Translations under genes and position numbers: made by a program | Shown here: in pieces, positions 6,409 to 53,523 of the stretch | Position numbering within the stretch: the stretch's first letter is position 1 | Layout of the letters: every line of letters starts with the position of its first letter | Source of the DNA: Trichodelitschia bisporula | Taxonomy: Eukaryota | DNA length: 64,000 nucleotides | Assembly (NCBI GenBank): GCA_010356995.1 | Contig: ML996697.1 | Coordinates: 1 to 64,000, forward strand | Direction of reading: 5' to 3' | The notes under the pieces: model-generated | Told to the model about the DNA's origin: nothing | Databases searched by the model: none | Seen by the model: the letters and a program-made list of their open reading frames with translations, nothing else

Positions 6409-6624
6409 GCGAGAGACGAACTGATGGTGGAGGCATTGCGGTCGATGGTCGTGATGAGCGCGGGGCGCGGCGTGGCCTTTGGTGGCGGCCGTAGTTGCCC
6501 TAGCAACGCTTGGCGCGGCTTGCAGCACTTGCTAGACGCACTTTGGACATCACCACTTTGAGTACCATCACCCATGTACATTGGCTACTAATGTTTAATC
6601 GTGCATCTTTTGCTCACTTACATT

Positions 6625-9600
6625 ATGTCGCCTTCTCATATTGAAGTCGGCGCGATCAAAGACGCGCTCTCCGCGTGCAAGTGCAGCGCGACGACTGTTG
6701 CAGCGCTGCAGAAGCTGCTCGACGAACCAGCAACCGGGAAGACACCCGCGACGGCCAGGAAAACGACCGCGAGAACGACCGCAAAAACGCCTGCAAAAAC
6801 GCCCGCCAGAACTTCACGAACACCCGCACGACAAACGGGACTCAGTCCACAGGAAAAGCTGACCCTCGCGACCGAAGTCGTCAACATCTCGCTCAAGGCG
6901 CTCTCCGACGCGCCTAAAACCGCCCGCCGCCGCTCGCTCGACAAGACGTATAAGGACAAATGTACGGGGCCTGCAGCAGTGGTCGAGTGCGCGCGCCTTG
7001 CCTTTTCCTACCTCGGATCACAGCGGGACAGAGATGTCGGAATGCAGCTGGAGAATGGGATGCTAGTGCTGGCTGGCAAGTGCGTTGCTCATGGCCTGGA
7101 CGTGCTGGCGTTGAAAGAATTGCGCTCGCTGCGACGGCGCCTTTGCCAACATCTCGGGGAGGACCTCAAGGCTGAAGCGACAGCGGACATCATGGCTTTT
7201 CCAGACATCCCCACCGACAGTCCGGTGCTCCCGTTGGCCGCCAGTCTGCAGCTCACCTTTCTGAAGGCCATTGCCCTGCAACGACGAGCCAGCGTTGTAG
7301 AAAGCTGTCTAGAACACCTGCAGCCTGACACACCTTCATCACCGATCGCGCTTCTGCTCCGGCAAGCCAACTCACCGTCCGCAAAGGCCAAAGCGGCGCG
7401 CCAACTCGAATCCCTCTCGCAAACCCTCTTCTCCCTCTGCCCCAGCGTTGCTCCGGCTGACGACACACCGACGACATTTTCACCAGCGGCCGCGTTCAAG
7501 CTGCAATACCTCGCCTTTCAGGCACGTCTACGCTGGTGGAAGCTGGCTGGCCACGAGGCGAACATCGAAAAAGAGTTTTGGAACCCGCTGTCAAAGTGCC
7601 TGTCGGCGTTTTCACGACGTGCCAAGGGACCGGCTGACGACAAGTACCGGCTGGTGAACGAGACGGTGCGCGCGCTCGAAGCCGAAGTTAGGGACTCCAC
7701 TCCGCCAGCCATTCTCAAGATTCTAAGCAGCTTGGCGCATGCAGCGGGCTCGCCCGATGCGATCCGATGGACTGAAATGCTGCAGACGGCACAAATACAG
7801 AGCGGCGTTTCGGAAGCCCAGCTCGCGGCGTCGACCATCCGTATTGCCACGCTTGCGCTCGGGGGCGACAACGGAGCGGCAGAGTTGCGCACGGCATTGG
7901 ATTGCTTGTCCGGTAAAGCGCGCGGCGACTCAGCGGATCTTGACGCTTTGGTGGTGGAAGTGGCTGGGCTGCGACGGGCAGCAGTCAAGGTGTACGCCAG
8001 GGAGCGTGCAGCGGGTGGAGCGCTTTGCAAGCTGAGCCAGGACACTGTGTTTGCGTGTGTCCACTTCCTGACACGCTACATTGGGAGCGGGGACGCACGC
8101 CGCAGCGACCGTCTCCTGATCGTCAGCAAAATCGCCAAAGGGGCCATTGACTCGGTGCTACTGTGCTGTCGGCAGGCTGAGTGGGAGGTATTGGATGCGG
8201 GCTTACAGGACTGTCATTTTTTGGCGAAAGAGCTGGTGCAGTGGGCTGATGGGCCGGATGGAGCAGAGATTGAGGACGATATTCGACACACGGCGGCCAA
8301 AGTCTCCAACCTGTACTGGCTGTCCCACCAACGCGCGACGAAACCGGATCTGGCCCTTCTGGCACTACGGAAAAGCGTCGCTGTCTTGAAGGAGGAGCCC
8401 GCCGCGGAACGGCAAGCCGCCCACCTGTGCGCGAAACTGGAACGTTTGGCGGAGATCTCGCAGACGCCGAAGACACTGGGCTTGGTCACGGACGCGCTGC
8501 GTCAGGTGGTGGACGAGCACATTCAGAGCGGCACACTGCGCGCCGCCGCCGATCAGGCCGCCGCCTTGCCACTGGATGCTGGGCGGATGTTGAAGTCAGT
8601 ACGCAGTCTGGCGCTCTTGCTATGGAAACGGGATGAGCCCCATTTTGACGACTCCACGCTGCCCGACGATCATCGGGGTCTTCTGCTAGAGTGGCAATTT
8701 GAGTATGCGCTACCGGAGCTCATCAAGGCGCGGCCCGAGCAAGTCCCGGCGAGGGCAGAAAGCTTGTTCGTGGCGCTCATGGACGTGTATGCGGCAGACC
8801 GGTTTCCCGTACGGCGGCTGCGGACCGTGGTGACGGCCCTGCGGTTGCCGGAGGGATCCGTACAACTCGGCAAATGCCTCCTGGAACTCGACGCTCGCTG
8901 GACGAAGCCAGCTAAGGACAAGGGACTCGTTCGGTTCTGGGACCATCTCTCAGCATCTGCGCGAGCCCTCCGGGCACTCCGGAATCCAGTGGACATCACG
9001 GCAGCGCAGAAGGCGCTGGAGACATGGCAGGGCATCGTCGATAGCTCAGTGTCGTTGGACTCTCTACAACAACACGTGGACCCCATCGAGCCATGGGTCG
9101 CGCAGCTTAACCTTCTGGCCGACTTCTTTGCGATGCAGGGCGCCGCGCACTCGGAGCTGCGGACTCTCAACCTCCTGGTGAAGGTACTTGAGCTGCAGGA
9201 GCACAGTGCGTTGCCGGGAGTTATCACCCGGCTTGGCCTACAGTATTCACGCGCTGGGTTCACGACTAAAGCCGGCGTGTTGCTCGCCCGCGCGCAAGCG
9301 CTCCTCACCGAACCGTCTGAGGCGCGCCTGCGCTGGTGTCTCGCATACGCCGAGTACCTCCTCGACATCGGTTGTCTCGATAAGGCCGGCGCCGCACTAG
9401 AGGCCGCCGAGCAGACGGCTGTGGAAGCAGACATTGTAGGGTCGAAAACCCGTTCGACACGCACGCGCACCATCCAACTAGTTTCCGAGGCGTGTTACGT
9501 CTACTCGCGACATGCGCTCGAGACCGGTGCCGCCGACGACGCATTCCGGCTCGCCCGTGCCTGCGTCAAGCTCAACCAGCGCGCGTGGGCGAACATCGAA

Positions 9601-12158
9601 GGCCACCAGCGGCGGGCGAGTCCGGGGTCGGGCAGCGAGTCGGAGGCGGTGGTGTCGATGACGCATGATGCGCTGCAGGGGGCGGCGTTTTGGGCGTTCG
9701 TGCCGGCGCTGTTTAGGGGGTTGGCACACCTGGCGGCGATGTTTGCGCACAATGGCTTGTTCCAAGAGGCGATCTACTATGCGGAGCAGGCGAAGCGCGT
9801 GGCTGATGCTGGTGGGATAGCGCTTCGCGCGGCGAATATGGTTGATGCGCTACGTATTCGGGGAGGAGAGGGGCAGAAGGCGTGGGGTGAGCGGATTGAT
9901 GGGCGGGAGGAGGACGAGATTGAGCGTGATACCTGCGACGCTGTCGGGAAGTATCTCAACGCGGCGCTGGTGGCACGCGACTTGCGCGACTGGGAGCGGG
10001 TCAACAACGAGCTAGACGCTGCCCTCAGGATTATCGACGCCGCGCCCGGTCTGGAACGGGTTGACCTAGCCGACCAAGTGGCCGCCCTCACGATTGACAA
10101 GCCCAACGGAAGGACGACGCGAAAGGCACCCACCAAGGCAACGAAGGTCACGAAGGTCACGAAAGCCATAAAGGTGGCCCCTCGCAAGCCCGAGGAATGC
10201 AGCCGGCTGCTCGCGCTTCGCGCCCGGATCCTACGTGGCAAGGCCAACGCACTGCTCGAGCTCGGCCAAATCGATGCCGCCCACGATCTGCTCCAGCACG
10301 TCGCCCCGCCGTTCGACCGCGAGACGGCCGTGCAGCAGCAGATTGCGCAGTCGCGGCACCTCGCTCGCAAGGCGCTGAAGGAACTGGCATCCGACTTTAC
10401 GTACAGCACGCTACTTGAGTCGACTATTTCGGTGCCGGCGCTTGCCACGGACACGAGGCGGGGGCGGGCGGCTAAGTTTGCAGCTACGCTACGTGCCGCG
10501 CGTGAATGTGTCGGTAGTACTACAGCTCTCTCAACGACAACGCTGCGGGACGCCTGCCGGTCTGCGAGTTCCGCCTCCATTCTGTTGTCCGCCGCTGGGC
10601 CGGTACACCCCCTCGCAATCGCGCCATTGCTCGACCTGCCGCGTATCCACGCCAGCCAACGCGAGCTCGCCGTCGTGCGCATCGAGGAGGAGAAGCGGTC
10701 GAGCGCCGATCTGCTGAAGTGGCCGTCCGCAGGGGAAGTGCCCACGGCCGACGCCCCGTTCCAAGAGCAGTACATCGACATCATCCCGCCCGTCTGGACC
10801 GCTGTGTCGCTGTCGCTGAACGAGGCGCGCGATGAGCTCGTCGCCACACGTTACCGCGCTGGGCAGTCGCCATTTGTCCTGCGGCTGCCGATGGTGCGCC
10901 ACAACTCGCGTGACCCCGACGAGGAGCTGTTCGACTTTTGCGCTGGGAAGGCGGAGCTCACTGAGATTATTGAGCTGTCGAACTTCAGCACGCGCAACGC
11001 CCGCGACATGAGTGCTAAAGGGGCGCGTGGCGAGTGGTGGGCTGCGCGCGAGGCGCTGGACACGCGGCTGGCGGAGCTGCTGACGAGTATTGAGAACTTC
11101 TGGCTCGGCGGCTTCCGGGGGATCTTTGGGGCCCGACCGAATGCGCACGCGCTGGGGCGCTTCCAGAAGACGTTCCAGGATATTCTACACCGCAACCTGC
11201 CGCGGAAAGGAAAGGCGGCGCGGCCAGTGTTTGACCCGCGGATTTTGGAGCTGTTTGTGGCGCTGGGGACGGAGGATGACGAGCCGCTGATGGATCTGTT
11301 GTACTTCGTCGTCGATATCATGCAGTTCAGCGGCGACCGCTTCGCGTACGATGAGGTGGACTTTGATGCCGTAAGTTGATTGTGCTGCCGATGATGACGA
11401 CGCTAATATCACAGATTGCCATTGCCACCATCGATGCTATCCGCGATTATCACGATGCGGCCCCGCCACCAGAAGCCCACCACACCATCCTCATCCTCGA
11501 CAAGGACCTGCATGCGTTCCCGTGGGAGTCGCTGCCATCGCTGCGCGGCCTGAGCATCTCACGTCTGCCGTCGTTGGCCGCCCTGCGTGAGCGTATCATT
11601 GCTGCTGCACCGCCGACACCCCGCCGTGGTGCCAGCATCCTGAACCCATCGGGCGACTTGCTACAGACGCAGAAGACGCTTCAGCCATACCTACGCGGCC
11701 TCGGCCGGGAGTGGGCGCACCAGACTGCGCCGCCCTCAGAATCGGAGCTCGCGCACCTCGCCGCCGACAACGACTTGCTGCTGTACTTTGGGCACGGTTC
11801 GGGCGCACAGTTTGCCCGGCCGCGCGCGATCCGCAAGCTGGGCCGGTGCGCCACAACATGGCTGATGGGGTGTTCGAGCGCGGCAGTCACGGAGCATGGG
11901 GAGTTTGAGCCGAGTGGCATGGTGCTTGCGTATTTGGCGGCTGGGGCGCCGGCGGTGGTGGGCACGCTGTGGGATGTTACGGACCGGGACTGCGATCGTG
12001 CGGCTATTCGCTTGGGGGAGGTATGGGGGCTGTGGGACGGGACGGAGACGGGCAAGAGTCTTGTGGAGGCGGTGGTGCAGAGCCGCGATGCTTGTTATTT
12101 GCGGCATTTGAATGGGGCGGCGTTTGTTGTGTATGGTGTGCCGGTGTATCTGGGGTGA
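6625..12158 (+). CDS. ESP1: Separase (peptidase C50; Esp1/Cut1/BimB)
   Basis: ~1830 aa after removing intron 11371-11414 (gtaagt..ctaat..cag); C-terminal motifs WW..R..LD, FPWESLP, SRLPS, LNPSGDL, YFGHGSG (catalytic His), LMGCSS (catalytic Cys), GTLWDVTD.D.D. Confidence 0.96.
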
Positions 12159-16988: not shown

Positions 16989-19900
16989 GCGATTGATTCT
17001 TTTGGTAGCGGAATTGTGGCAGGCGTTTTTTTTTGGTGGGTGAGGAAATGGTGCCTGGGGGTGTTGAATCACTGGATTATGGAAGCGGGTGTACGGTCTC
17101 ACTCGCTCTGGACGCGAGCCTGGGTTGCAAATTCGTACGGAACGTATGTCATTCTGTTTGTCAAGTCTGAATGCGGGAGACGTGGCAACCGGACACGCAG
17201 GCACGGAGCCTCCACCCAGCAACAGAGGCGAAAGCACGTGATGTCCCCTCGGCCTCGGACTCCTCGCCGCCAGCCTCGTAAAAGCAACCGCGCATCCCTT
17301 CCGCAACCAGCAACCAGCAGCCCAGGATGCGGATACCAGCCCGTTTCGGAGCCACGCAACCCGTCCTCGGCACCGTTGCCGTGCCCATGCGGGGTCCAGC
17401 GCGTTGCGATCCAGCCAGCCACACGCATGCTGGCTGCTGGCTGCTGCGCTGTTCGCCGTATGAGGACGGAGGTTGCTACGGAATGAGCGCGGGGTTTACG
17501 ACACTCTGGCGGCAGCGCCGGATGAGGTGTTTGTGTTTGCGCATCGGACGAATATGTGCAGTGGGTGCACGGACTTGCGGGCGTGCTCCCTGGGGGGGAT
17601 CGGCGGGCTGGTTCTGGACGGGGGCGGCGGATCGGGAGGGGTGAGGCGGGACGGGAGATCATGGTAAGCTCCCGCGCTTAGGCGTATCGCACCGGATAGA
17701 GGGACATTATGGCAACACCGGGCTTGTATCACGTCGAGATGTGTTCTACGGCTTGCGGGCTGCTGCCATTGAGGGAACTGGTTATCTTCTTCACGCTTGA
17801 TACTGCCTGTTCTCCGTCTACGCCGCTGACAGGATACTCAGGCTCGGTAGGGGAGGGAGGCATCACATTCATTCGGATAGCACTTTGGTGGTGAGTTGGC
17901 TAATGGGTGGGATGTTCAGTGTTCGAGGGCGGATAGGCGCGGCGCCGGCGGGGATTTTGGGAAGGGATCGCTGGTGCGGGAGATATCTGACTGGGGCTGC
18001 GGACGTGGGCTGTTACGGTGAGGCGCGGGAGAAGGTGAAGGCTTTCGACGTTGGAAGCTGAAGGTTCGGATTTGGATACGGGTGCGGAGCAGATTGGGAC
18101 GGCAGGGAGAGATGGATTGGGACGTTACCCTGGGCTTTCGGTGGCATCATCCTGGTTACCTATGCGTTACATGAAGCAGCATGCTCGACAAGCGAGTGGC
18201 GATGGGCGCAGGCTGCGGTATCTGAGACATGCGGGGCCTCGAGGAGGATGGTGTTTCGTCGAACGGGGCGGGAGATGGGCGGTTCCGCGCGTTAAAGGTG
18301 CAGTGAGCGGGCGCGGGCGCGGCTCTGCAGGGTGAGTGTTTGCAAGGTGGGGGACCGGGAACCGGGTTGAGGGCTGGCCTGCTGGAGGATGCGGCTAGAT
18401 GGAGCTGGACGTTCTAGCGGGTGGGATGGGCAGTTATTCCGGAGTTCGAGGCTATCGGACGGGTTATCAGATAACCTCACTTCACAGCTGGCTGGGGAGG
18501 GGGATGGGGAGCAGAGATGCGGAGATGGATGGATATATCGGTCCACCGCGGTCGGCGCATGGGGTTTTGGATAGCCGATATGGTACTCGATTGAGATGGG
18601 GCTTGTGTTGCGCTATGGCGGTTGATGAACGGCCGGGGAATTTGCAATTGGACGGAGGGAGGCCCGGTGTGGTTGGTAGGTCGGAGGTTTTGAGATTGAA
18701 GAGCCGCTGGCTTTTTTTGTGGCTAGAGCGGGGGAGAGGGAGGGGTGGTGGAGTGGAGGGGTTGAAGCAATGAAGAGAACGGAGACTCCCGTGATAAGTT
18801 CAACGCGAGAGAGAGAGAGTACCGGTAGTGAGAGAGAGTCGAGATGTGGCTGGGAATGATGACAGTGGAGATGAGACGAGGCTGGCCCGGGCGACTCTTT
18901 GGTGAGAGTGTTCCTGGGCCTTGCCAGGTGACTGATAGGGGATAGTGTGGGGGGCCTCACCGCTTTCGGGTTAGGATGGGGGAATTATTGGTGGGATCTC
19001 GGTACGCGAGAGACGTGGAATGGGACGATGGGAGCCTATGATTCATCCAGAGGTGGGTAGGGGGGTTGCTTCGTTGGGAAGGATGCCTTGCTTATCAGGT
19101 TCGAGACGCGCGTTCGAAGCCAGCTGCGACGCGTCAAAGAAATGCCGACATGGAAGAGGATAAGATGCACTATGCAACTGCGTGTCTCTCCTCTGCAGCA
19201 ACTTGCGACGTACAAGTTGCTCCGTACCCTTGAGATATTTGCGGATTGCCGATTCTTCGGAATTCACATTGCGGGTCCAGCCCTTCCCCTTTGGGATCGC
19301 TTTTCTCTCGTCACTCGGCTGCTTTCTGTCGTCAGTTCTCGCCCGTTTTCCATCGAGCGTCATGAACGACCAAGCGAACAGGTCAAGGCATACTGTCAGC
19401 CAGCCTGGAATCCGGCCGAGAAGATCAAAGAAAAGTTGCCCGTATCGCAGCCAGCCATGGTTCCATCGCTCTCCCGGCCGGTGGCGCCGTGTGGTGCAGA
19501 TTGCCGCTTTACCGTGGACCGTTTGGCTGGGCGTGCATCACTTCGCAGGTTGCTTGTGCAGTTTGCAGTTTACGGCGGAGAGAGAGTGCGCTCAGAGTGG
19601 AAGAGACGGAGTCCGGCGGGGATTTTCATGACCGCTTTTGGCACCGATGTTAGAGGATCCTTGGAGCAATTCTCCCTCTTTGTCTCTGCAGCCTCGTCAT
19701 TCAGCTCCCATCTGTTCCACCGTGGTCCACTTTCCATCCAGGTATTTCCCAGGAAGATGGGCGACGATGGGGCTAGCTTCTGTTACACTAAGGCGTGATG
19801 CTGTACAGCAGCTACAGCAGCTATCTTGCCGCCGTACCGTATCTTCACAATCCCGAGTCAACGACTCAACTCCACTCCCACTCCACCACCCATTGAAGCA

Positions 19901-20608: not shown

Positions 20609-23581
20609 ATGATGATCCACGCCCAGGCTCATCAGCTAGGCGGGTCTAGCTCTGGCCTTCCCTCTGGCTCCTCAGTCCATGCTAGTCCAGGACCCGTACC
20701 AAAGCGCCACCGATGGACCATCGCGCTGCACAGCTCTCTGGAGTCGTATCACCCCGACGGCACCGCTGCTCTCGTTCAGGCTGCCCACGCCGCCGCCGCC
20801 GCTCCCCTCCTCACGTCCTCTGTGCAACATTCCACGCTGCTCGGCAACGGCACCGGCGGTAGCACCACCCTCCACAACAATAACACCTCCTCCCTTCAGC
20901 GCTCCCGAGCCCGCGTTCGCCCCGTCTCCGCCGCCGTCTCTGCTCCACACTCGCGCGTCACCAGTCCCGAATCCTCCCCCGAGCGTCCTCAGTCTGAAGG
21001 CACCTCTACCCTTCAGCGTGCTGCTACATTTTCGCGCCAGTTGTCCGGCCGCTCGCGCAAGCTGCCTACCATCATGGAGACGAAGAATACGACGTCAATT
21101 GAGAGTCTCCGAACCCGAATGCGGACGGGCGCCGTGCGTCGATGGGATGGGAGAGTGAGGGCAGTTGATGCGTGGGATGGTCTGCGACGGGTGGGTCCTT
21201 TCCTGAAGCTGATGTTGAACTTGCATTGAGCATTGAGCTTGTGTGCTTGAGCTTGTGTGCTTATGCTGACCAAGGCTAACTATCCCCAGGATCCTGAGCT
21301 GTGGTTCGCCAATGGCAATTGCTACGTCCATCTCTATGCCCGCGGCCAGTCGCGTCGTGGCCCGTCCTTCCGCGTACCACTTCGCGCGCTGCAGGACGCA
21401 CGCTTCGACCGCATCTTCAGCCTCTTCTACGCCCAGGCGACGAAAGAGGTCAACAGCTTCAACCCCACAAACCCAGGCGTCATTGAGCTCTTCATCCCAC
21501 CACCCGATAACCTCACCAAAGACGCCGCTTTCGCGTGGCACCTCACGACACGAAACTTCTTCGCCTTTCTCTTCGGCAAGCCGCTCGTCGGCAGTCTGCT
21601 CGGCCGCGCCATGGTCGATTTGCAGGACCGTCTGCAGCTGCTGCGGCCGGATGCGGCGAGGAACCAGCGTGAGGTGATGGCGTATCTCGAGGGCATGGGA
21701 TATCTCGAGTTCGTCCACTGTCCCGAGTACGCTTTGGCGTTGCTGCACTACGCCGAGAACTTCCGCATCGGAGATCTTTGGATTGATGCTTTTGTGCACT
21801 GCGTCGGCATGAACGACCTCATCGAGTCAAACTCGCAGCTTCAGGCCGTTTCGCCGGGGACCAGGACCCTCGTCGCGCGGGCGTATGCGGAGATGGACCT
21901 GCATCTGACCGGCGTGACCAAGGCCCTGAGCAACTTCCTCGAGGAGGACTTCGGCCCGACGTACCTGGGCCTTAGCCACGGCGCTCGCGCCCACCTCGAG
22001 CGCTTCCGCTCGTTTCTTCATTCCTTTTACGTCGAGAAATTCGGCTACTGGCCCCCTCCCGCGGGAAGTACCTTCTCCAAGGCCCTCTACCGCTCCATGT
22101 ACTTCGACTTCCGCAGCCTCTACGACTACCTCGTCGACCTCGACTCCACCGACTCCTTGCAAGACCAAAAGCCCGCATCAGGCGGTATCTGCGTGCTACA
22201 AAACGTTCAGGCCTTCGATAGACGCCACCACTACGTCCCCCTCCCGCACCCCAACCCCCTCCTCCCAGACACATCCGACACGCCCAAAGGCCCAGCCCCC
22301 CGCACGCTCATCGGCCTGCGCATGCCCCGCGGCCCCTCCCGCTCAGAGCGCTACGTCAACGCGCGCGACGCCCTCCTCGCCGCGGCAAACAGCCACGACC
22401 TCGCTACCGCCAATGCTCCGCTCGTCAAGGCATACCGGCGCTTCGAGCGCGACTGCACGCGCCAGCCGGAGGAGAAGGTGTCTATTGCTGATGCGCGCAA
22501 GGTGCGCTGGATACTCATCTACGGGAGTTTGCAGATGCTAGTGTCCGTTATTCGCGCGCCGAAGGAGGTGAGAGATACGGAGTCCGCGAGTTATCCGCTT
22601 TGCGCGCTCGTCGCGAATCTCCCGCCCTGGCTTGAGGTGCCCGATGAGCCGGCCACGCCGCTGCGCAGCAGTCCCGTCGTTGAGCCGCTTGAGGCGCCTG
22701 GCCCGCCTGTGCCGGCCGTCGCTATTCAGCCGGACTGCGACACAGAGGCCTTCCCGCGCCCTTCTGAGTCACACCACCAGTCCGCGTCATCAAATCCACA
22801 CCGCGTCAGCGCGCTCTTCCGCAATACCTCCCTGCGCAGCGTCAAAGCGCTCTCCTTTTCTGGCTTCGTGGCAAGACCTAAGCCCGCTTCTGCACCGGTG
22901 AGGCCTGCGGGGCCTAATTTCTGCGAGATTTTGGTGCAGGGGTATGGGAACGGGCTGAATCCCGCTGTTGTGGGCGGGGCGGAGATGGAGCAGCGCCAGA
23001 ATGCTGTTGAGCTGCCTACGCCCGGGCCCAGTGCGCCAGGGAGTCCCAAGAAGTTCGATGAGAAGAAGTTCGATGAGCCGATGCCGGTTGAGTTGCCGGC
23101 CAGTGTGCCGACGGAATTGCCGGCTGCTGTACCGCGGATGGGGCCCGTGCGGCCCGTGCATCCGCCTCGCACGTCCAGTTTACGGGCGACGAGGCCGGGG
23201 AGTCGTGGGGTTAGTCGGCCGGGCTCGCGGGGGACGTCGAGGCCGGGATCGCGGAGTGGTGTGCCTTCCGTTCCCGTGGTGCCGGCCCCGACGCAGGTGC
23301 ATGAGATGGAGGCGGAGGGGCGGACGCGGACCCCGATTTTGGACGCGATGGATGTGGATAAGGTGCATGATCCGGTGCCGGGCTTGGAGGAGGGCGGGCA
23401 TGATAGTCCAAGTGAGGGGAGTGGGGAGGAGCCGCGGACACCGGTTTGGAGTCGGGAGGGGACGCCGCCTTTGGCGGGTAATGGGGTGGTGGGTATTGGG
23501 GTTACGAAGGGGGGGAAGAAGATTAGGCGGAGTTTGAGGGGGAGTTTGAGGAGGTTGGGGGGGAAGGAGGTTAGGGTTTGA
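20609..23581 (+). CDS. Conserved fungal protein of unknown function (DUF8004-like) with Pro/Ser-rich tails
   Basis: Exon 1 ends RRWDG..WDGLRR; intron 21191-21289; exon 2 begins DPELWF..GNCYVHLYARGQSRRGPSF and contains TRNFFA, DAFVHCVGM, YVEKFGYWPP and ARKVRW. Confidence 0.8.
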
Positions 23582-23931
23582 TGGCATTCACTGGTATTTC
23601 TTTGGTACGGTTTTTTTGGGGGGAGGGGGTTTTGCTTTGCTTGGAGCGCGGCGTTGGGATGGTGTTTGGCTTGCTTCGCTTTTTGATGGGTAAAAGTCGG
23701 CGTTTCGGGCGTGGTGTGGTGTGGTGTGTGGGTGTGTGATACCATCGTTAAGACGCCTTTTTTTGAAACGGGATCGGGCTGGTCTGGACTGGATAGGGGT
23801 TAGCTAACGCGGACGCGGGATATGTAGATCGAGCGTAGGGGATGAATGCATGGCAGCTCGCGATCTTGAGTTGTGCTTGGTGTTTGGTGCTCTGTCTCGT
23901 GAAGTCATCATATCCTATTCCGGAGGAATTG

Positions 23932-24222
23932 CTTACCCGGTACTCAATTGGCTACCCGGTACTCAGTACTTAGCTTACTACCCCGCCCTCCGACAGCTAC
24001 CCAGCCTTTAGACATCTACCCGGCGCTGAGACAGCTACCAGGCACGTAGACAGCTACCCGGCATTTGGGCAGCTACCCGGAACTTAAGCAGTTACCCGGT
24101 ACTTGCCTAGCTACCCAGCACCCCACCGGCTACCCGGCACTTATAGAGCTACCCGCTACTGACTTAGCTACCCGGCACTTACACAGCTACCCCGAACTGA
24201 GACAGTTACCCGGTACTTAAAC
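23932..24222. repeat. Minisatellite, ~15 degenerate 19-20 bp units (consensus ~GACAGCTACCCGGCACTTA), with two detached copies at ~24430 and ~24458
   Basis: Consecutive units such as gacagctacccagccttta, gacatctacccggcgctga, gacagctaccaggcacgta, gacagctacccggcatttg and ggcagctacccggaactta. Confidence 0.9.
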
Positions 24223-37668: not shown

Positions 37669-38175
37669 TTTGAGTTGTGGTGGTTGAGTTGCGGACGGAG
37701 GTGTGGCTGCTGAGCTAATCGGGATATTTTTTCAGGCAGCAGGGCATCGTAAGGCATAAAGCGCACGTGCCATCAGCCGTGCCAGCCTTGTCTTCCCCGC
37801 CGGCATCGATATTGCGTGCAATTTAGAGTTGGACTTGTCAGATTTACTTCAACTGAAGAGTACTGCTTTCACATCCTCATTTTGACGTCAGAACCATGGA
37901 GTGGGGAAGGTGCCAATGATCTACAAGTCAGAACAGTCGGAATTCGGATCCCAAAGGATCAACGCAAAAACCACTTTTCTCCTCTTTCACGGACTCCCTC
38001 GTCTGCGCTGTGGCAAAACGCGGGGAATAAATGACTCCGCTTCGAATTTAGATGAACTGGCCCCTCCGCGAACGAGGAATACTATGCGTGATGACCGCCT
38101 CCAACTCTTGACCCGAATTGGCTCCGCCAACACAATCTCCGCATCACCACCCTCGTTCAACCTCCCCAAACCACA

Positions 38176-39074
38176 ATGGTCCACCCCCAAGGAACCAAAG
38201 AAGGCCCATACACACGACTAGACGACCTCCCCACACCCGATGAGTTCGAAGAAGTCAACCTGCCGCCCCGACGGCCTTCAACCCGCTACCGCACGCTCTT
38301 CTTCGTCTCCATCGGCGTGTGGATCCTCTCGCTCCTGCTCATAATGGTAAACTACCGCCATCCGCGGCGCGCGCTGCCGTCGCAGGATATGTACCCAAAA
38401 AGTGCGTTACTGTTTAACGTTACCGGTTGCGCTCCATCTAACAAGGCAGTCCCAATGCGCGTCGTGACGTTCGACCCAGACCCAGCGTTTGACGGCGATC
38501 CACTGGCGTCGGAGCACAACGCGTGGACAGACCTAATTCCACGTACGTTACTGTCTGCTCATCAGCATTTACTGACTCCCGTAGCCGGCCGCGGGCACAT
38601 CGTCGTCCAGAACCCCGCGTCGTGGAATCTGTCCGGCGGATACCCACTCGACGACGAGTGGGGCCCACAAGCCGAAGAATACGCCATCTCGGTATTCCAC
38701 CAGCTGCACTGCCTGGTACATCCCCTCCCCCACCAACAACGCCATTTCTAACCCCACAGGCATCACTTAAATCCGCGCTCCTCGCGCTGCGCAACCCCCC
38801 CAACCCACTGAAGAAGGTAGGGGGCATGCCCGACGCACCGGAGCCTTCGGAACCGTTCCACCTCGACCACTGCTTCGATTATCTGCGGCAGGCGGTGATG
38901 TGCTCCGGGGACACGGCGCTGGAGAAGGCGATGGTTGTGGATGGGGAGCGGAGGAGGGAGGTGCTCGGGTGGGGGGTGGAGCATGAGTGTCGGGACTATG
39001 AGGCGATTTTTAAGTTTGCGAGGGAGAGAAGGAGTCGGGATTCGTTTGGGATTAAGGGGCCGGGGCATCAATGA
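38176..39074 (+). CDS. DUF3328/UstYa-like oxidase
   Basis: N-terminal TM anchor, W..LIP.GRG, and twin HxxHC motifs (VFHQLHCL and HLDHCFDYLRQAVMCSGD), then GWG.EH.CRDYE; three short introns. Confidence 0.92.
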
Positions 39075-48280: not shown

Positions 48281-49179
48281 TCACCACCATTTCTCGCAGT
48301 GCACGGCCCCGGTCCGGTCCCGCAGTTGTTCAACCGCATCGTCTGTCATGTCGGGCGGGCCGCATACGAAGGCCGTGGTGTGCGGGCCGGACGCTCCTAA
48401 CACTTCGGCGAAATCGGATGAGGTGAGACGGCGCGTGTGCACCGCGATGTCCGGGCCGTGATCGAGCGGCGGCGCCGGGGATGTAAGGAAGAGGTGCACC
48501 CTCAAGTCCGGGCGGCGGGCGCGCAGGCCAAGCAGCCGGGAGAGGAAGAGGATTTGCGAGCCCGGCGGCGGGGCTTTGGTCGTGTACATGAAGTCGAGCG
48601 CCTCGAGCGGCGTCTCAGTCTCGACGACGTGCGCGAGCATCGAGATTAGCGGGCTGCGCGGCGCGTCAATACGAGTACCGCACTCCCGGCTGCAAGCAAG
48701 TGGACGTACTTAATGCCGACCCCGCCCGCGACGAACAGCGCGCGTTGTATACCTTCGCGCGGCCAGACGAAGTCCCCGCCGACGCGCACGCGCAGCTGCG
48801 AGCCCAGGATCTGCTCCTCTCGCCGCCAGAGCCATGCCGCGGGCGGGTTATCGCTTGCCTGGACTGCGAGCTCGATATGCCCACCCGCGACGCTGGACGC
48901 GGTGGGTGTGGATGTGATGGTGAAGCCGCCGGGCTTGGGGAGGGAGGGGATGTGCACGTCGAGCCATTGGCCTGGGAGGAAGGTGATTGGATGTTGGGTG
49001 CGGAGGGTGAGGATGCGGATTGTGGGGTTTGGGGTGGTTATTGTGGTGAGGGTTACGGGGTGGAGGGTTGGGGAGCGGGATTGGGCGGCGGTGCGCTCGG
49101 TGTGGGTTGTGCTTGACATTGTGATTACGCGGCGGGTAGGCTTGGAAAGAGGCACGAGAGGCTGGATACGCCGAAGCAT
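48281..49179 (-). CDS. FAD/NAD-binding oxidoreductase, OXNAD1-like (ferredoxin-reductase fold)
   Basis: FLPGQWLDV, GGFTITS.P, VRVGGDF, FVAGGVGI(N)P, VCGPP.M and terminal EKWW; one intron. Confidence 0.9.
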
Positions 49180-49955
49180 GGCGATGGTCAGTCGGTCTGC
49201 ATGTCGGGATAGAGCTTATGTCGGGTTGGGCCGAGCGTGCCGACAGTGACCACGAGAAGCCGGTTTTTTACCGCCGAAGCGAGTCGGGTCCCAGTTTCCT
49301 CAGCAAATTGCAATGATTTTCCTGCCAACGCGCACGTTTGGCAACATAGAACCCTCCGCAAACAGGCGTGGTGTAAATACCTAGGTAGCTTCTAGAGAAA
49401 CTGGAGAAAACAACTCCATAACACTTTGACGGCGTTTAATGCGGTAATGCGTGGGGCGTATAGCGGCCGTTACTATTGGCTAGAGTACCTAGCCTGGCAA
49501 GGGGAGCCTTGCATCAAGTCCTTCGGCGTATCTTCAACGACTAGTCCTGGTTGCAAGCTTTGGAGCAGTGAACTTCGGATGAACATCTATACATATTTGG
49601 AGACCTGGCTGTCGGAAGACCCTCACGATGGAAGCAATGGTTGTGAGCGAGCGTCTTGGTATCGGACAAACCTTTGCCAAGCATGGTTGTCGAATGCTCC
49701 TTCCTCCGGGAGTTTCTCACCAACGTCATCCACATTGACCAACTCCACCTGCACTCATACACAGACTTCGCCTGTTCGCACGATTTCTCTGCAACTCGCA
49801 ACTTTTCCTTTCGACTGCAACCTCCTTTCCTCGATTGCTCGACGCACTGATTTCGCACCCGCCTCTCTAATCACCACCGAACCACTTCTCCACCTGTGAC
49901 ATCGCCCACTTCACTCCGATCAGCTGCCTGTCATGTCTTGCTGCCGCTGAACGAC

Positions 49956-52227
49956 ATGGCGGGGGACTCGCTGGATCCCAAGAGACGCTGTCTTAGGCCG
50001 GTGCGCACGTTGGAAGAAGTTGATGAGGACATCCAACTGCTCGAGGAGGGTAAGCGACTATTATCGGAGGAGGCGGAGGCGGCTGGGGACTCACCGGGTT
50101 CTTAAGACCGACGTGAACAAATCGAAGAGAGGAAGCAACGACTTGACCATGGCCTCGTACTAATGCGAGAGGAAACCCGACAAATTGAAGAGGCGGCCCG
50201 ACGAATGCAAGAGGAGAACCGCCGACTTGAAGAGAAGAGAAGACCCGAAGACATCAAGAGCTGACCCGGAAAACGACACTGTTGGAATATCTCAACGCTT
50301 GCCATATCCATCAATTCTCTGCACTCGCCATTAGAAAACGGCCAGCATGGATACCAAAAAAACCTGAGAACGCCGTCGATAACTTGCGACCTGGAAAGAT
50401 AGTCATGTGGAAGGATTTTCACGCAAGCCAAAACACCCATTTGGAAAACTATTACGGAGTCAGATTTCATGACAAAGCGACTTTTCCCATCACTCCATTG
50501 TTTAGACTTTGAGGAGGAATGGAAGCGAGTGGGATCGATCTATTCCGAACACAATCTGACCACGTTTACATGGAGAGCAGTGGAAGGTCCTGTCGATGAA
50601 ATGATCGACGAGCTCTACGATGATTTCGAACTTCAAAGCAAGTTCAATCTCAAAGGAGAAATCCGGAGAGACAACCATAGCGAAAGTCTTGTTCCAGACT
50701 CCCCGTCGCCGGACCCGAGAACTCAGCGTCCTGGAGCCTATCAATTTTGCGCGTACAACACTCCGCGCGAGACAGAGGACGCACATCATCGAGTTCCCGC
50801 ATTTTTCCTGGAGTACAGAGCCTCGCAGGAACTGCCTCTTGCGTGCATCTATGCAGGCCTTGAAGGCATCAATGATACGGATTTGGACGAGGTCGTCTCC
50901 GACCAGAACCCCAAGACTCCCCAGGATAAATGCAGACAACTTATCGCTGCAATGTTTACTGACGCCTTCTCTTACATGACCTTCGCTGGGTTAGGTGTAC
51001 GTCTACATCTGCACTGGCGAAGCTTTCATCTTTCTAAGGATACCGGAGGATCCGAGTACTCTTCGCTACTACCTTTCCGTCCCAAAAGGTGATGTAGGTA
51101 ACAAGACTGGATGGGATCCGAAGATGGACGGAAACAATCGGCTGCATCTTACCGTCGTAGCCCAGCTGCTCGCTTTTACCCTTCGAGCATTTCAGACAAA
51201 GCCGCGCAGCCAACAATGGCGCAATTCTGCGATAGCTCGGCTAAAGACCTGGGACGCTAAGACTGACTTAGCGACTTTCGAATTCTTTCTCAATCATGAA
51301 TTGCCGCCCTCGGATTATCGACCCATACACCAGGGCATTTTGCCCCACGCGTCGCCTATCCGGCTTCGGTCTCAGGGACCAGCACATTCGCCGACCTCCC
51401 CACAACGTCCGTTAGGCGACAATCAACCCGACGGCGAGAAAGATTTCAATCCAGTCACCTCAGGCCGTCCACCTCTGCACCAGCCCTCCCAGTCTCAAAC
51501 TCAATGCTCCCAAGCTCAGGACATGCCTGAAACTAGGACTCATGGTGAAAGCTGGCAGTATTGCACCCACAGTTGCCTTCGTGGCCTGGTCGATGGACTT
51601 CCGCTTGACATGGCATGCCCTAATGTCAGAAAACATGGCGATCAACCTCATCATCAGCTTGATGAGCGCACTCTTCTCGAGCACATGCGGGAGCAACTTG
51701 CTCGGGACCCGGATACTGATTTTTTACCCACTTGGCCGTCCAGGATCCAGCTGTGTTCCCTTCAGAGCCAGGTTGTCATCCCACGGGTACACGTTCATTG
51801 CGAAGTGCACCCCTCAGGACTTTGACTCTTGCGCTATGAATGAGGGAAGCATCTATATGGAGCTTGATTCCATTCAGGGTATTCACATACCAATCTACAT
51901 TGGGCGCATGGAATTCGTCACACCCCATCACTACGAAGGAATCGCAGACCTCATTTATGCGACCTTTTACAGTTACGGAGGATCTTGCATTTCCATAGAT
52001 ACCGGCGACAGGAAAGCATGATTCAAAAAGTCGAAACTGCGGTGCGAGCGATCCATAAACGGCGCGTGCTCCACAGAGACCTCGCGTTTCGCAATATCCT
52101 CCTCGACGCGACGACTGGACAGGTAATGTTGATTGACTTCGAACGTGCAGTGACGGGGGCAACTCGGGTTGCGCGTACGAGGGAGTTCGAATCGATAAGG
52201 AAGTATTGGGATAAGCTCTTCTCATGA
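49956..52227 (+). pseudogene. Spok-family (spore killer-like) nuclease-kinase gene, multiply frameshifted
   Basis: Collinear fragments: E/R-rich coiled coil; TRKTTLLEYLNACH; AVEGPV..MIDEL; AYQFCAY...LEYRAS (degenerate PD-(D/E)xK); FSYM...G.../YICTGEAFIFL; Cys cluster YCTHSC-x13-CPNVRKH; kinase GYTFIAK, E..IY..L..IQG..IP, VLHRDLAFRNIL and IDFERA. No introns evident; one stop and ~5 frameshifts. Confidence 0.85.
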
Positions 52228-52674
52228 GGAATCGCTCAGTGGACGGGGGAGAGCAGTGACGGCAGGTTTTTAGAGGGGTTTTAGCGGCTTAATAGGCAAT
52301 TCACGGCTTCAACCTCGCTCACAATGATGTGATGTCTACGTTCAGCGATCTGTCAGCGTCTGCTCCATCCAAAGTTCTTCGCCTTGATAGACAAGGCAGG
52401 AGCGTTGCTATGAGGGAAGATGCATATGATGTAATGTGCGCGTGACGGGAGGAAGGAACATCGGAGGACATTGCCACATCATGTCTTTAGTCTCGAGTGT
52501 CTCTCTCTTCTCTTCTCTCTTTGTCTTTCATCAAACTTTCACTTCACACCGTAGCTATTGCACGTTGTCAGGCCTACGCTTCCATTAGCCTTTCTCACGG
52601 CCGCGAATCGGAAGCATTTCGTGCTAACTCATTCCGTGTCGAAACCCATCAAAGTCATAATCGTCAGATTCCCC

Positions 52675-53523
52675 TCACACAATCTCCTCAACCTCCTTCT
52701 CTTTCCCCACCATCAAACAGTAATCCACCAACGTAGCCAAAAGCACCACCCCCGTCGCCGCCCACGGTCCCCACTGATCAAAACTCCCCCGACTAACTTC
52801 CTCAGGTAGCCCCTCTAACCACCGCTCATGCACCCCAACAAACCCCCAAAACACAACAACACTCACAACCACCGCCGCCCTCTCCAACCCTCGCAGTACC
52901 CTCATCCTCATACCGACCTCCGCCTCCTCACTCCCAACCGCAGTCTCCACCCGCGGTCGTACACACGCCCACGCCCCGAACGCAGCCATAACCAGCGCCG
53001 CAATGTCAAATGCATGCACGAGCCGCGGCCGGGAAGGGCGAATCTCCGCTGCCACCGCGCCGTGATTGCCCTTCATGCCTAGCCGTGCGTCCGCGCACCG
53101 CTCCCCCGCTCTGTCCTCCACGCGCCACTCCTGCGCCGCGTACGCGCAACACGCGCCCGCAAGAATGAGCAGGCCCCACACGCGGACCAGCGGTCTTGCG
53201 CGGCTGCCTCGCAGTACGGGCGCCCAGCCGAGCAGAAGCGGCAGGGCACACGCGGACGCGCCGAGGACCTCCCATGCCGCGAAGATGTCGAGGTCTTTGG
53301 CGGGGATGGAGCCCGGATGGCGGGCGATGGCGAGGAGGGCAAAGGCCTGCAGCGCGATGACAGCGGTGCGGGTTAAAGATGCAGCGAGGGCGGCACGCGT
53401 GGCCCAGTTGCTGCTAGGGCCGTGGAGGGTGAAGATGAGGAGGGTGAGGGTGTTGAGGCGCGGGAGGATGGAGTGGGTGGGCGAGAGAGGGTAGATGCAG
53501 GGCATTCTTGTTGGAGTGTGCAT
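52675..53523 (-). CDS. Hypothetical multi-pass membrane protein
   Basis: 282-aa ORF with several hydrophobic helices, YPLS..H..LPR at the N-terminus and FDQWGPW near the C-terminus. Confidence 0.65.
   Translation of the reverse strand: MHTPTRMPCIYPLSPTHSILPRLNTLTLLIFTLHGPSSNWATRAALAASLTRTAVIALQAFALLAIARHPGSIPAKDLDIFAAWEVLGASACALPLLLGWAPVLRGSRARPLVRVWGLLILAGACCAYAAQEWRVEDRAGERCADARLGMKGNHGAVAAEIRPSRPRLVHAFDIAALVMAAFGAWACVRPRVETAVGSEEAEVGMRMRVLRGLERAAVVVSVVVFWGFVGVHERWLEGLPEEVSRGSFDQWGPWAATGVVLLATLVDYCLMVGKEKEVEEIV

Follow-up and report, generated by a model that had tools for sequence, protein, structure and literature searches.

Between positions 49956 and 52227, on the plus strand of a 64,000-nucleotide stretch of DNA from Trichodelitschia bisporula (GenBank assembly GCA_010356995.1, contig ML996697.1, positions 1 to 64,000; this whole stretch is called the window), the open reading frames (ORFs) form seven pieces in three frames, where a frame is the start coordinate modulo 3. 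Judged from the sequence, this locus is very probably a pseudogene that spans the full length of what was once a single-exon gene from the Spok (spore killer) family, with an SPOK2_N region and a Kdo-like kinase. It is called the relic here. An earlier note had described a dead Spok-type gene at this place, and its collinear fragments, its stop at 50103 and all the motifs that it named were found where it had put them. Frame changes were placed by comparing the three forward frames, with stops written as X, with a profile of 67 full-length homologues of 690-850 aa. Four of the five frameshifts lie where the note had them, and the fifth, given as near 50465, lies at 50420-50438, about 30-45 nt away. 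The features are as follows.

49956..50102, plus strand: piece 1, frame 0; ATG at 49956 and charged N-terminal helical region
50103..50105, plus strand: in-frame TAA stop, inside an intron-like 57-nt segment (50050-50106)
50106..50243, plus strand: piece 2, frame 0; charged helix continued; profile 12-45
50209..50260, plus strand: 26-nt unit present twice, copies 76% alike, GA-rich, spanning the first frame change
50231-50262, plus strand: frame change 1, 0 to 2, from the family profile alignment
50246..50419, plus strand: piece 3, frame 2; TTLLEYLNACH and the start of domain 1, with invariant P and W; profile 46-133, E 1.2e-16
50273-50305, plus strand: TTLLEYLNACH, read from the sequence
50420-50438, plus strand: frame change 2, 2 to 0, from the family profile alignment
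50439..50993, plus strand: piece 4, frame 0; rest of domain 1 and nuclease-like core; profile 12-312, E 2.8e-40
50994-50997, plus strand: frame change 3, 0 to 1, from the family profile alignment
50998..51720, plus strand: piece 5, frame 1; second half of the nuclease-like domain, variable linker and Cys cluster; profile 311-565, E 5.9e-74
51562-51636, plus strand: C-x3-C-x13-C-x5-H, read from the sequence
51720..51725, plus strand: T6 run and frame change 4, 1 to 2; the same in the X1, X2 and X3 contigs described below
51725..52012, plus strand: piece 6, frame 2; kinase N-lobe, with the Lys of 'AK' at 51803-51805 and the conserved Glu kept; profile 561-664, E 4.1e-28
52010-52018, plus strand: frame change 5, 2 to 1, from the family profile alignment
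52018..52227, plus strand: piece 7, frame 1; catalytic loop HRD, Asn, DFE and TGA; profile 654-711, E 6.2e-17
52072-52080, plus strand: HRD of the kinase catalytic loop
52093-52095, plus strand: Asn of the kinase catalytic loop
52135-52143, plus strand: DFE of the kinase
52225-52227, plus strand: TGA stop, gene end

The TAA at 50103-50105 closes the ATG frame after 49 codons, and frame 0 resumes beyond it. No full-length product can be read from the locus; the longest piece from the ATG at 49956 is these 49 codons, and no downstream ATG-led frame holds the whole kinase. Read through the breaks, the domains follow each other collinearly in one gene, from a charged N-terminal helix over domain 1, the nuclease-like domain 2 and the Cys cluster to the Kdo-like kinase. 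The N-terminal 96 aa consist to 54% of E, K, R, D and Q and align to the N-terminal helix of the family. A crude heptad count, the only coiled-coil check made, gave a hydrophobic fraction of 0.41 against 0.22 at positions a and d in the best register, and the Pfam matches of this region to helical families are weak (E 0.05-0.27).

Does the relic belong to the Spok family? The 67-homologue profile matches it five times, collinearly and on one strand, over profile positions 12-711 of 752 (E 5.9e-74 to 1.2e-16), and these are the only profile matches in the six frames of the window. When two full-length homologues were compared with the window by tblastn, residues 16-704 and 17-706 were covered collinearly in three frames, at this locus only. 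The Cys pattern C-x3-C-x13-C-x5-H has a single occurrence in the window over all six frames, whereas 100 block shuffles gave 0.10 on average. A phmmer search of 1.84 billion representative proteins with the 276-aa frame at 50995-51822 found 716 proteins at E<=1e-3, of which 315 reach E<=1e-10 and 35 reach E<=1e-30. The best match has an E value of 1.6e-48 and 47% identity. The full-length matches are about 750 aa long, and the fragment corresponds to their residues ~310-570. The named matches are hypothetical proteins of Ascomycota, from Emydomyces testavorans, Ascosphaera aggregata, Aspergillus affinis, Pseudogymnoascus destructans and Sporothrix epigloea, among others.

An alignment of 54 full-length homologues (A1), used as a profile, found 405 proteins at E<=1e-10, and the domain PF27653 is precomputed on all 120 of those listed. 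The same is true of all 120 listed relatives of P0248, a protein of Cordyceps fumosorosea ARSEF 2679, whose genome has five clade II homologues according to the source data of Fig. 7 in Vogan 2019 (PMC6660238). In the protein atlas, PF27653 is named SPOK2_N, 'Spore killer 2 N-terminal domain'; no literature on PF27653 was found. In PMC12693581, the InterPro entry given for the Spok family is IPR052396. For SPOK3, PMC6660238 describes a PD-(D/E)XK site, QxxxY, C-x3-C-x13-C-x5-H-x7-H and a Kdo-like kinase with the catalytic Asp D667. The invariant and near-invariant columns of A1 match these published features: Asp...Glu-x-Lys, QxxxY, C-x3-C-x13-C-x5-H and the catalytic Asp of a Kdo-like kinase. 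Since the family columns coincide with the SPOK3 features and the homologues carry SPOK2_N, the relic is a Spok-family member by descent. The Spok-type domain order with Cys cluster and kinase, as the earlier note had it, is borne out by the collinear profile matches and by the SPOK2_N label of the homologues.

It might be argued that the relic is an unrelated fusion of a nuclease and a kinase, or the pseudogene of an ordinary protein kinase, which merely resembles Spok. Nuclease-kinase architectures are widespread (Zhang et al. 2016, as cited in PMC12693581), and a Pfam scan of the relic names the kinase part only, with a Pfam copy that does not include PF27653. In that scan, the last fragment matches Pkinase at 2.6e-9 (37.3 bits, cut-off 31.7) and Kdo at 6.9e-9 (35.9 bits, cut-off 21.3). 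However, most of the signal comes from the 540 residues outside the kinase (E 2.8e-40 and 5.9e-74), including the family-specific TTLxEYLxACH and the exact Cys spacing, and the homologues are SPOK2_N proteins. Such an unrelated origin is hardly credible.

Several points weigh against counting the relic as a Spok gene and former driver. The Spok link rests on the PF27653 label that is precomputed on the homologues, not on a scan of the relic itself. The comparison set contains no sequence of a proven driver, that is, none of Podospora SPOK1-4 and no tested Fusarium Spok, and no Podospora- or Fusarium-named protein is among the 120 + 120 matches listed for the A1 profile and the P0248 query. In an atlas look-up with the fragment 50439-50993, a SPOK2_N cluster came only tenth with a score of 0.84, which is a lead only; the top matches are unnamed Ascomycota clusters (0.92 and 0.91). 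A profile of domain 2 built from 12 segments found 0 chains at E<=10 among the PDB sequences. The relic is also an orphan: its identity to the closest of 242 near-full-length homologues reaches 46% (606 aligned columns), the terminal branch leading to it measures 1.09-1.14 substitutions per site where the median is 0.20, and FastTree and IQ-TREE place it differently. The catalytic residues of its nuclease are replaced (see below). X1 and X2, two of the four sequencing runs that confirm the breaks, may be the assembly's own reads, and the strain independence of the sample behind the other two (X3 and X4) is not established. The whole-family profile found only kinases among the PDB sequences, with CDC7 the best at 7e-7, and the 229-aa frame at 50403-51089, used as a query for longer homologous proteins, gave 426 candidates, none of them significant. 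The PD-(D/E)XK fold of domain 2 is taken, by analogy, from the HHpred result published in Vogan 2019 (PMC6660238).

Are the breaks real? Four public runs contain this DNA, of which X1 and X2 come from one sample and X3 and X4 from a second sample in a second study. If the gene were intact in the organism, the stop and the frame changes would be errors of sequencing or assembly. A T6 homopolymer does hold one of the shifts, two more are next to short runs of A or C, and repeatable Nanopore errors are described as making false stops in Fusarium Spok genes (PMC12693581). However, the Logan contigs of X1 (word depth 422) and X2 (199) span 49800-52400, and that of X3 (depth 8) spans 49800-52265. 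These three run across the six lesions without a single difference or gap, while X4 gives six short pieces with 0 differences, so that the four runs agree at every covered base. Two of the five shifts (50231-50262, where no base is repeated more than three times, and 50994-50997) lie away from runs of at least three identical bases. The neighbouring genes are unbroken and have long open frames, such as a separase frame of 1595 aa and that of an AMP-binding enzyme of 477 aa. Thus, the breaks are local to the relic. The separase frame and the next frame, at 6592-12155 on the plus strand, match Peptidase_C50 (separase) from end to end; a frame so long and open shows that frame errors are not a general feature of the assembly. 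Because the contigs match the window and the neighbours are intact, the lesions belong to the DNA of the organism and not to the assembly. The stop and the frame changes are real. The contigs of the two samples are identical to the window at the lesions, which speaks against the assembly indels that the earlier note had wanted excluded. Errors of sequencing or assembly are very improbable as an explanation. No RNA run is listed as containing this DNA; the total sizes of X3 and X4 are compatible with low-coverage DNA, and their cover is no evidence on transcription.

It is equally worth asking whether a functional gene could be restored by splicing, frameshifting or RNA editing. Vogan 2019 (PMC6660238) notes that apparent stops and frameshifts in some homologues might be unidentified introns. 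The 57-nt segment at 50050-50106 begins with GTAAGC, contains a branch-like CTCAC, ends with AG and holds the sole in-frame stop; its removal would keep the frame. On the other hand, the family alignment is continuous and free of gaps at the five frame changes. The region 50160-50280 is devoid of any GT dinucleotide, so that an intron is not possible there, and editing, as a matter of general knowledge, cannot repair frame changes. No joint, whether from splicing or deletion, was found in the contigs across 49800-52400, and the 57-nt segment is never absent. Podospora Spok coding regions are described as having no known introns, and the introns predicted in Fusarium Spok genes are said usually to mask stops (PMC12693581). 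Because no contig is without the segment, Podospora Spoks have no known introns and predicted Fusarium introns usually hide stops, the TAA at 50103-50105 is counted as a lesion and not as an intron. A functional gene of this kind is even less to be expected than an artefact of the assembly, and the relic is treated below as a pseudogene.

What has been preserved in the relic? It was translated through its breaks with X and aligned to A1, with columns of at least 80% taken as conserved. The relic keeps 82 of the 99 conserved columns (83%), compared with an average of 92% and a minimum of 74% for family members. By region, it keeps 5/5 in the N-terminal helix and TTLxEYLxACH, 8/12 in domain 1 (where the family-invariant P68 and W74 are retained), 29/36 in the nuclease-like domain, 2/2 in the linker, 12/12 in the Cys cluster and 26/32 in the kinase. 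All of the key kinase residues are kept, namely K579 and E592 (P0010 numbering), His-Arg-Asp, Asn and Asp-Phe-Glu. The spacing of the Cys cluster is exact through the first His, which 4-5 residues separate from the second His, in agreement with the family consensus used.

The nuclease-like site is different. Its Asp has become Tyr (50739-50741), its Glu is kept (50811-50813) and its Lys has become Arg (50817-50819), so that the PD-(D/E)XK triad of the relic reads Tyr, Glu, Arg, with two of the three catalytic residues substituted. In the QxxxY site, Gln has become Asp (50961-50963) and Tyr is kept (50973-50975), giving DxxxY. These residues are nearly constant in the family (n=242: D 231, E 234, K 234, Q 237). 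Six of the seven losses in the nuclease domain fall in the active-site blocks (D to Y, K to R, P to S, H to Q, K to E and Q to D); outside these blocks, one of 27 conserved columns is lost. The replacement of three of the five published nuclease residues compares with 14 of 94 other conserved columns (Fisher p = 0.034) and with 0 of 10 key residues of the kinase and Cys cluster (Fisher p = 0.022), p-values that are modest and partly post hoc. Where the earlier note saw a restriction-endonuclease-like core, the region does align to the family, but two of its three catalytic residues and the Q of QxxxY are substituted. Replaced catalytic residues are expected in a dead or disarmed copy; they lower the case for an active killer in the last state of the gene, not the case for homology.

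The window is fungal-type nuclear DNA with a GC content of about 0.60 and intron-bearing genes. The neighbours of the relic include separase, RPN7, a WD40 protein, bestrophin, MFS transporters, DUF5321 and UstYa, as well as a Ras-family GTPase, a short-chain dehydrogenase, an NAD-binding oxidoreductase (weak match), an FAD-binding enzyme and an AMP-binding enzyme. Two adjacent frames at 38095-39071 on the plus strand match the two halves of Pfam UstYa (mycotoxin biosynthesis) at 2e-8 and 4.7e-18, which suggests a UstYa-family gene with an intron; the short-chain dehydrogenase, FAD-binding and AMP-binding enzymes lie no more than 20 kb from these frames. Local GC skew is strong at 18001-19000 (0.436) and 23001-24000 (0.326) compared with the rest of the window.

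How did the gene die? No signature of repeat-induced point mutation (RIP) was found. The TA/AT ratio of 0.53 and the (CA+TG)/(AC+GT) ratio of 1.23 are the same as for the whole window, and RIP was rejected as the cause of death. Among ORFs of at least 130 aa across the window there is no transposon, terminal repeat or Starship-type recombinase or captain. A transposon or terminal repeats flanking the relic were also rejected, as only weak pairs at chance level were seen, the best of 27 nt at 74%. An inverted pair of 27 nt, 74% complementary, lies nearly symmetrically around the relic at 49681-49707 and 52448-52474 and is probably due to chance. Opposite-strand genes were rejected as well (three antisense ORFs of 145-170 aa, with no family above chance), and Rfam gave 0 matches in 48500-53500. 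The first frame change may have been caused by a duplication of the 26-nt unit, since 26 is not divisible by three and the duplication would give exactly the observed shift. In Podospora Spoks, this region is described as a repeat of variable length (Vogan 2019, PMC6660238).

The composition of the relic also differs from its surroundings. Its in-frame GC contents at the first, second and third codon positions are 0.59, 0.43 and 0.54. The third-position value (GC3) of nine neighbouring frames is 0.63-0.84, and the GC content of non-coding stretches is 0.49-0.57. Wholesale neutral decay is an unlikely source of the low GC3, given that the scaffold retains 83% of the constrained columns; the value hints that a foreign origin, or a gene never adapted to the codon usage of the host, fits better. 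The codon composition suggests a foreign or mobile origin of the gene. Horizontal transfer has been proposed for Spoks (Vogan 2019, PMC6660238), with which the low GC3 is in line.

The placement of the relic among its relatives was assessed with the 242 near-full-length homologues. Its median identity to them is 39%, equal to the value between members. It falls within a clade of 78-85 sequences that are mostly from Dothideomycetes or lichen fungi, with unstable sister groups. FastTree joined the relic to P0048 and P0034, which have altered nuclease sites (support 0.80). IQ-TREE placed it beside P0226, P0250, P0260 and P0242, a group containing Cladosporium, with a Shimodaira-Hasegawa-like approximate likelihood ratio (SH-aLRT) of 90.3. 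The FastTree grouping was rejected as long-branch attraction, as IQ-TREE differs and the identities to P0048 and P0034 are only 33% and 37%. In metagenome contigs, 105 pattern matches were found, none of which was confirmed by tblastn. Two of the homologous proteins carry additional domains: P0295 of Talaromyces stipitatus (1158 aa) is a BCS1_N/AAA fusion, and P0005 of Ascosphaera aggregata (1088 aa) is an ABC/AAA-type fusion. These fusions are probably merged gene models.

Killing is demonstrated for the Podospora Spok genes. In PMC6660238, the nuclease domain of intact Spoks is described as required for killing and the kinase as required for resistance; in Spok3, the change K240A ends killing and spares resistance. 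SPOK1 is reported to kill by acting on DNA (PMC9972908), and Spok3 and some Fusarium homologues are reported to be toxin and antidote in yeast (PMC12693581). An intact Spok is one polypeptide whose PD-(D/E)XK-type nuclease kills by DNA damage, while the C-terminal kinase protects the carriers. The ancestor of the relic may have been a working toxin-antidote gene that was later inactivated. As the scaffold is still well preserved, the death would be recent relative to the age of the family. As for the order of events, the toxin may have been disarmed first, or the nuclease site may have decayed fastest or after the frame broke. A death in which the nuclease was disarmed first (D to Y, K to R, Q to D) while the kinase antidote stayed under selection, with the frame broken later, is a tentative proposal that I hold to be possible but doubtful.

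Alternatively, the gene may never have driven. It may have been a resistance-only or co-opted member with an inactive nuclease, which was lost as useless, so that the Spok label would denote ancestry only. The concentration of replacements in the nuclease site, against none in the key residues of the kinase and Cys cluster, speaks for this, as does the single conserved column lost from the nuclease domain outside the active-site blocks, which is unlike uniform decay. Most Spok relatives are described as very diverged, and the single-copy homologues of clade I as probably not drivers (Vogan 2019, PMC6660238). The housekeeping neighbourhood, in which no transposon or Starship captain was seen among the ORFs of that length, also fits. 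However, the substitutions may equally postdate the breakage of the frame, and their order cannot be dated without a close relative; the FastTree grouping, which suggested that the Asp had been lost early and in common, did not reappear with IQ-TREE, and the limits of the Fisher tests apply here too. I regard a gene that never drove as a minority possibility, on a par with the toxin-first death. As regards the claim of the earlier note that this lineage carried a Spok toxin-antidote gene, it is supported in part: a dead full-length family member is indeed present, and this copy or its ancestor may have been a driver.

Is such an alteration of the nuclease common in the family? Among the 242 homologues, 18 have at least one change at the nuclease D, E, K or Q. 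Seven have at least two such changes and all five key kinase residues intact (P0048, P0077, P0087, P0089, P0096, P0097 and P0120; named examples are from Sporothrix epigloea and Trichoderma barbatum), a pattern that would also suit a gene that never drove. The reverse pattern, with a changed kinase, was found in 1/242 (P0021), in which the C-terminus is merely unaligned. A sign test of 7 vs 1 gives p = 0.07, in a length-filtered sample and without phylogenetic correction. Some of the nuclease-altered homologues may be mis-modelled pseudogenes. I did not find this toxin-first asymmetry discussed in the parts of the Spok literature surveyed, which is not to claim that it is unpublished.

The relic resembles Podospora Spok1-4 (Grognet 2014, Vogan 2019) in domain order and length class (about 750 aa in the relic's family, compared with a coding sequence alignment of 2334 nt). 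They share the charged N-terminal helix with a repeat-prone 5′ end, the PD-(D/E)XK and QxxxY columns, the identical C-x3-C-x13-C-x5-H spacing, the catalytic Asp of the Kdo-like kinase, and a homology that can be read without a coding intron. In contrast to them, the relic is dead (one stop and five frame changes), has its nuclease D, K and Q replaced and, within the window, does not lie on a Spok block or Enterprise-like element. Its second cluster His comes at x4 or x5, whereas x7 is published for SPOK3. Spok pseudogenes are already known, with SpokPsi1 in P. anserina and Psi-marked homologues in Fig. 7 of PMC6660238, and pseudogenized copies are reported from many Fusarium genomes (PMC12693581). 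SpokPsi1 and the putative Spok pseudogenes of Fusarium and other Hypocreales are likewise broken by premature stops and/or frameshifts. However, SpokPsi1 is subtelomeric, has no 5′ end and carries a transposon insertion, while the relic runs from ATG to stop amid housekeeping genes, with no insertion and no RIP.

A nuclease region altered beside an intact kinase, as in the relic, is also seen in the resistant, non-killing Spok2 allele of P. anserina strain A and in the engineered Spok3 K240A, and the relic has an Arg at the very Lys that was changed in the latter. These two have open frames that still give resistance, whereas the relic cannot be translated through. The Spok homologues of Fusarium (FuSpoks, such as FOXG_14774, which lies on a Starship) belong to the same family as the relic. 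A conserved K240 position is taken as the sign that a Fusarium spok is functional (bioRxiv 10.64898/2026.10.04.756499). FuSpoks are overrepresented on Starships and on accessory or dispensable chromosomes, whereas the relic lies in a gene-dense, core-like region and has lost the Lys at the K240 position.

Dead Spok copies are already known in Podospora and Fusarium, and in this respect the relic is a sound but fairly ordinary find. It is distinctive in its full length, without transposon or RIP, in its housekeeping setting and in the specific alteration of its nuclease site. It adds a read-verified Spok-family pseudogene in a core, housekeeping-gene neighbourhood. It shows that this lineage once acquired such a gene, and it gives a reason to seek intact copies in this genome and in other isolates. 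For the family, the decay pattern in which the nuclease is lost and the kinase and Cys cluster are kept may be usable as a toxin-antidote signature for hundreds of uncharacterised homologues. If true, the toxin-first pattern would be a comparative footprint of Spok toxin-antidote action in many Ascomycota beyond Podospora and Fusarium, and natural resistance-only alleles would be a regular stage in the Spok life cycle.

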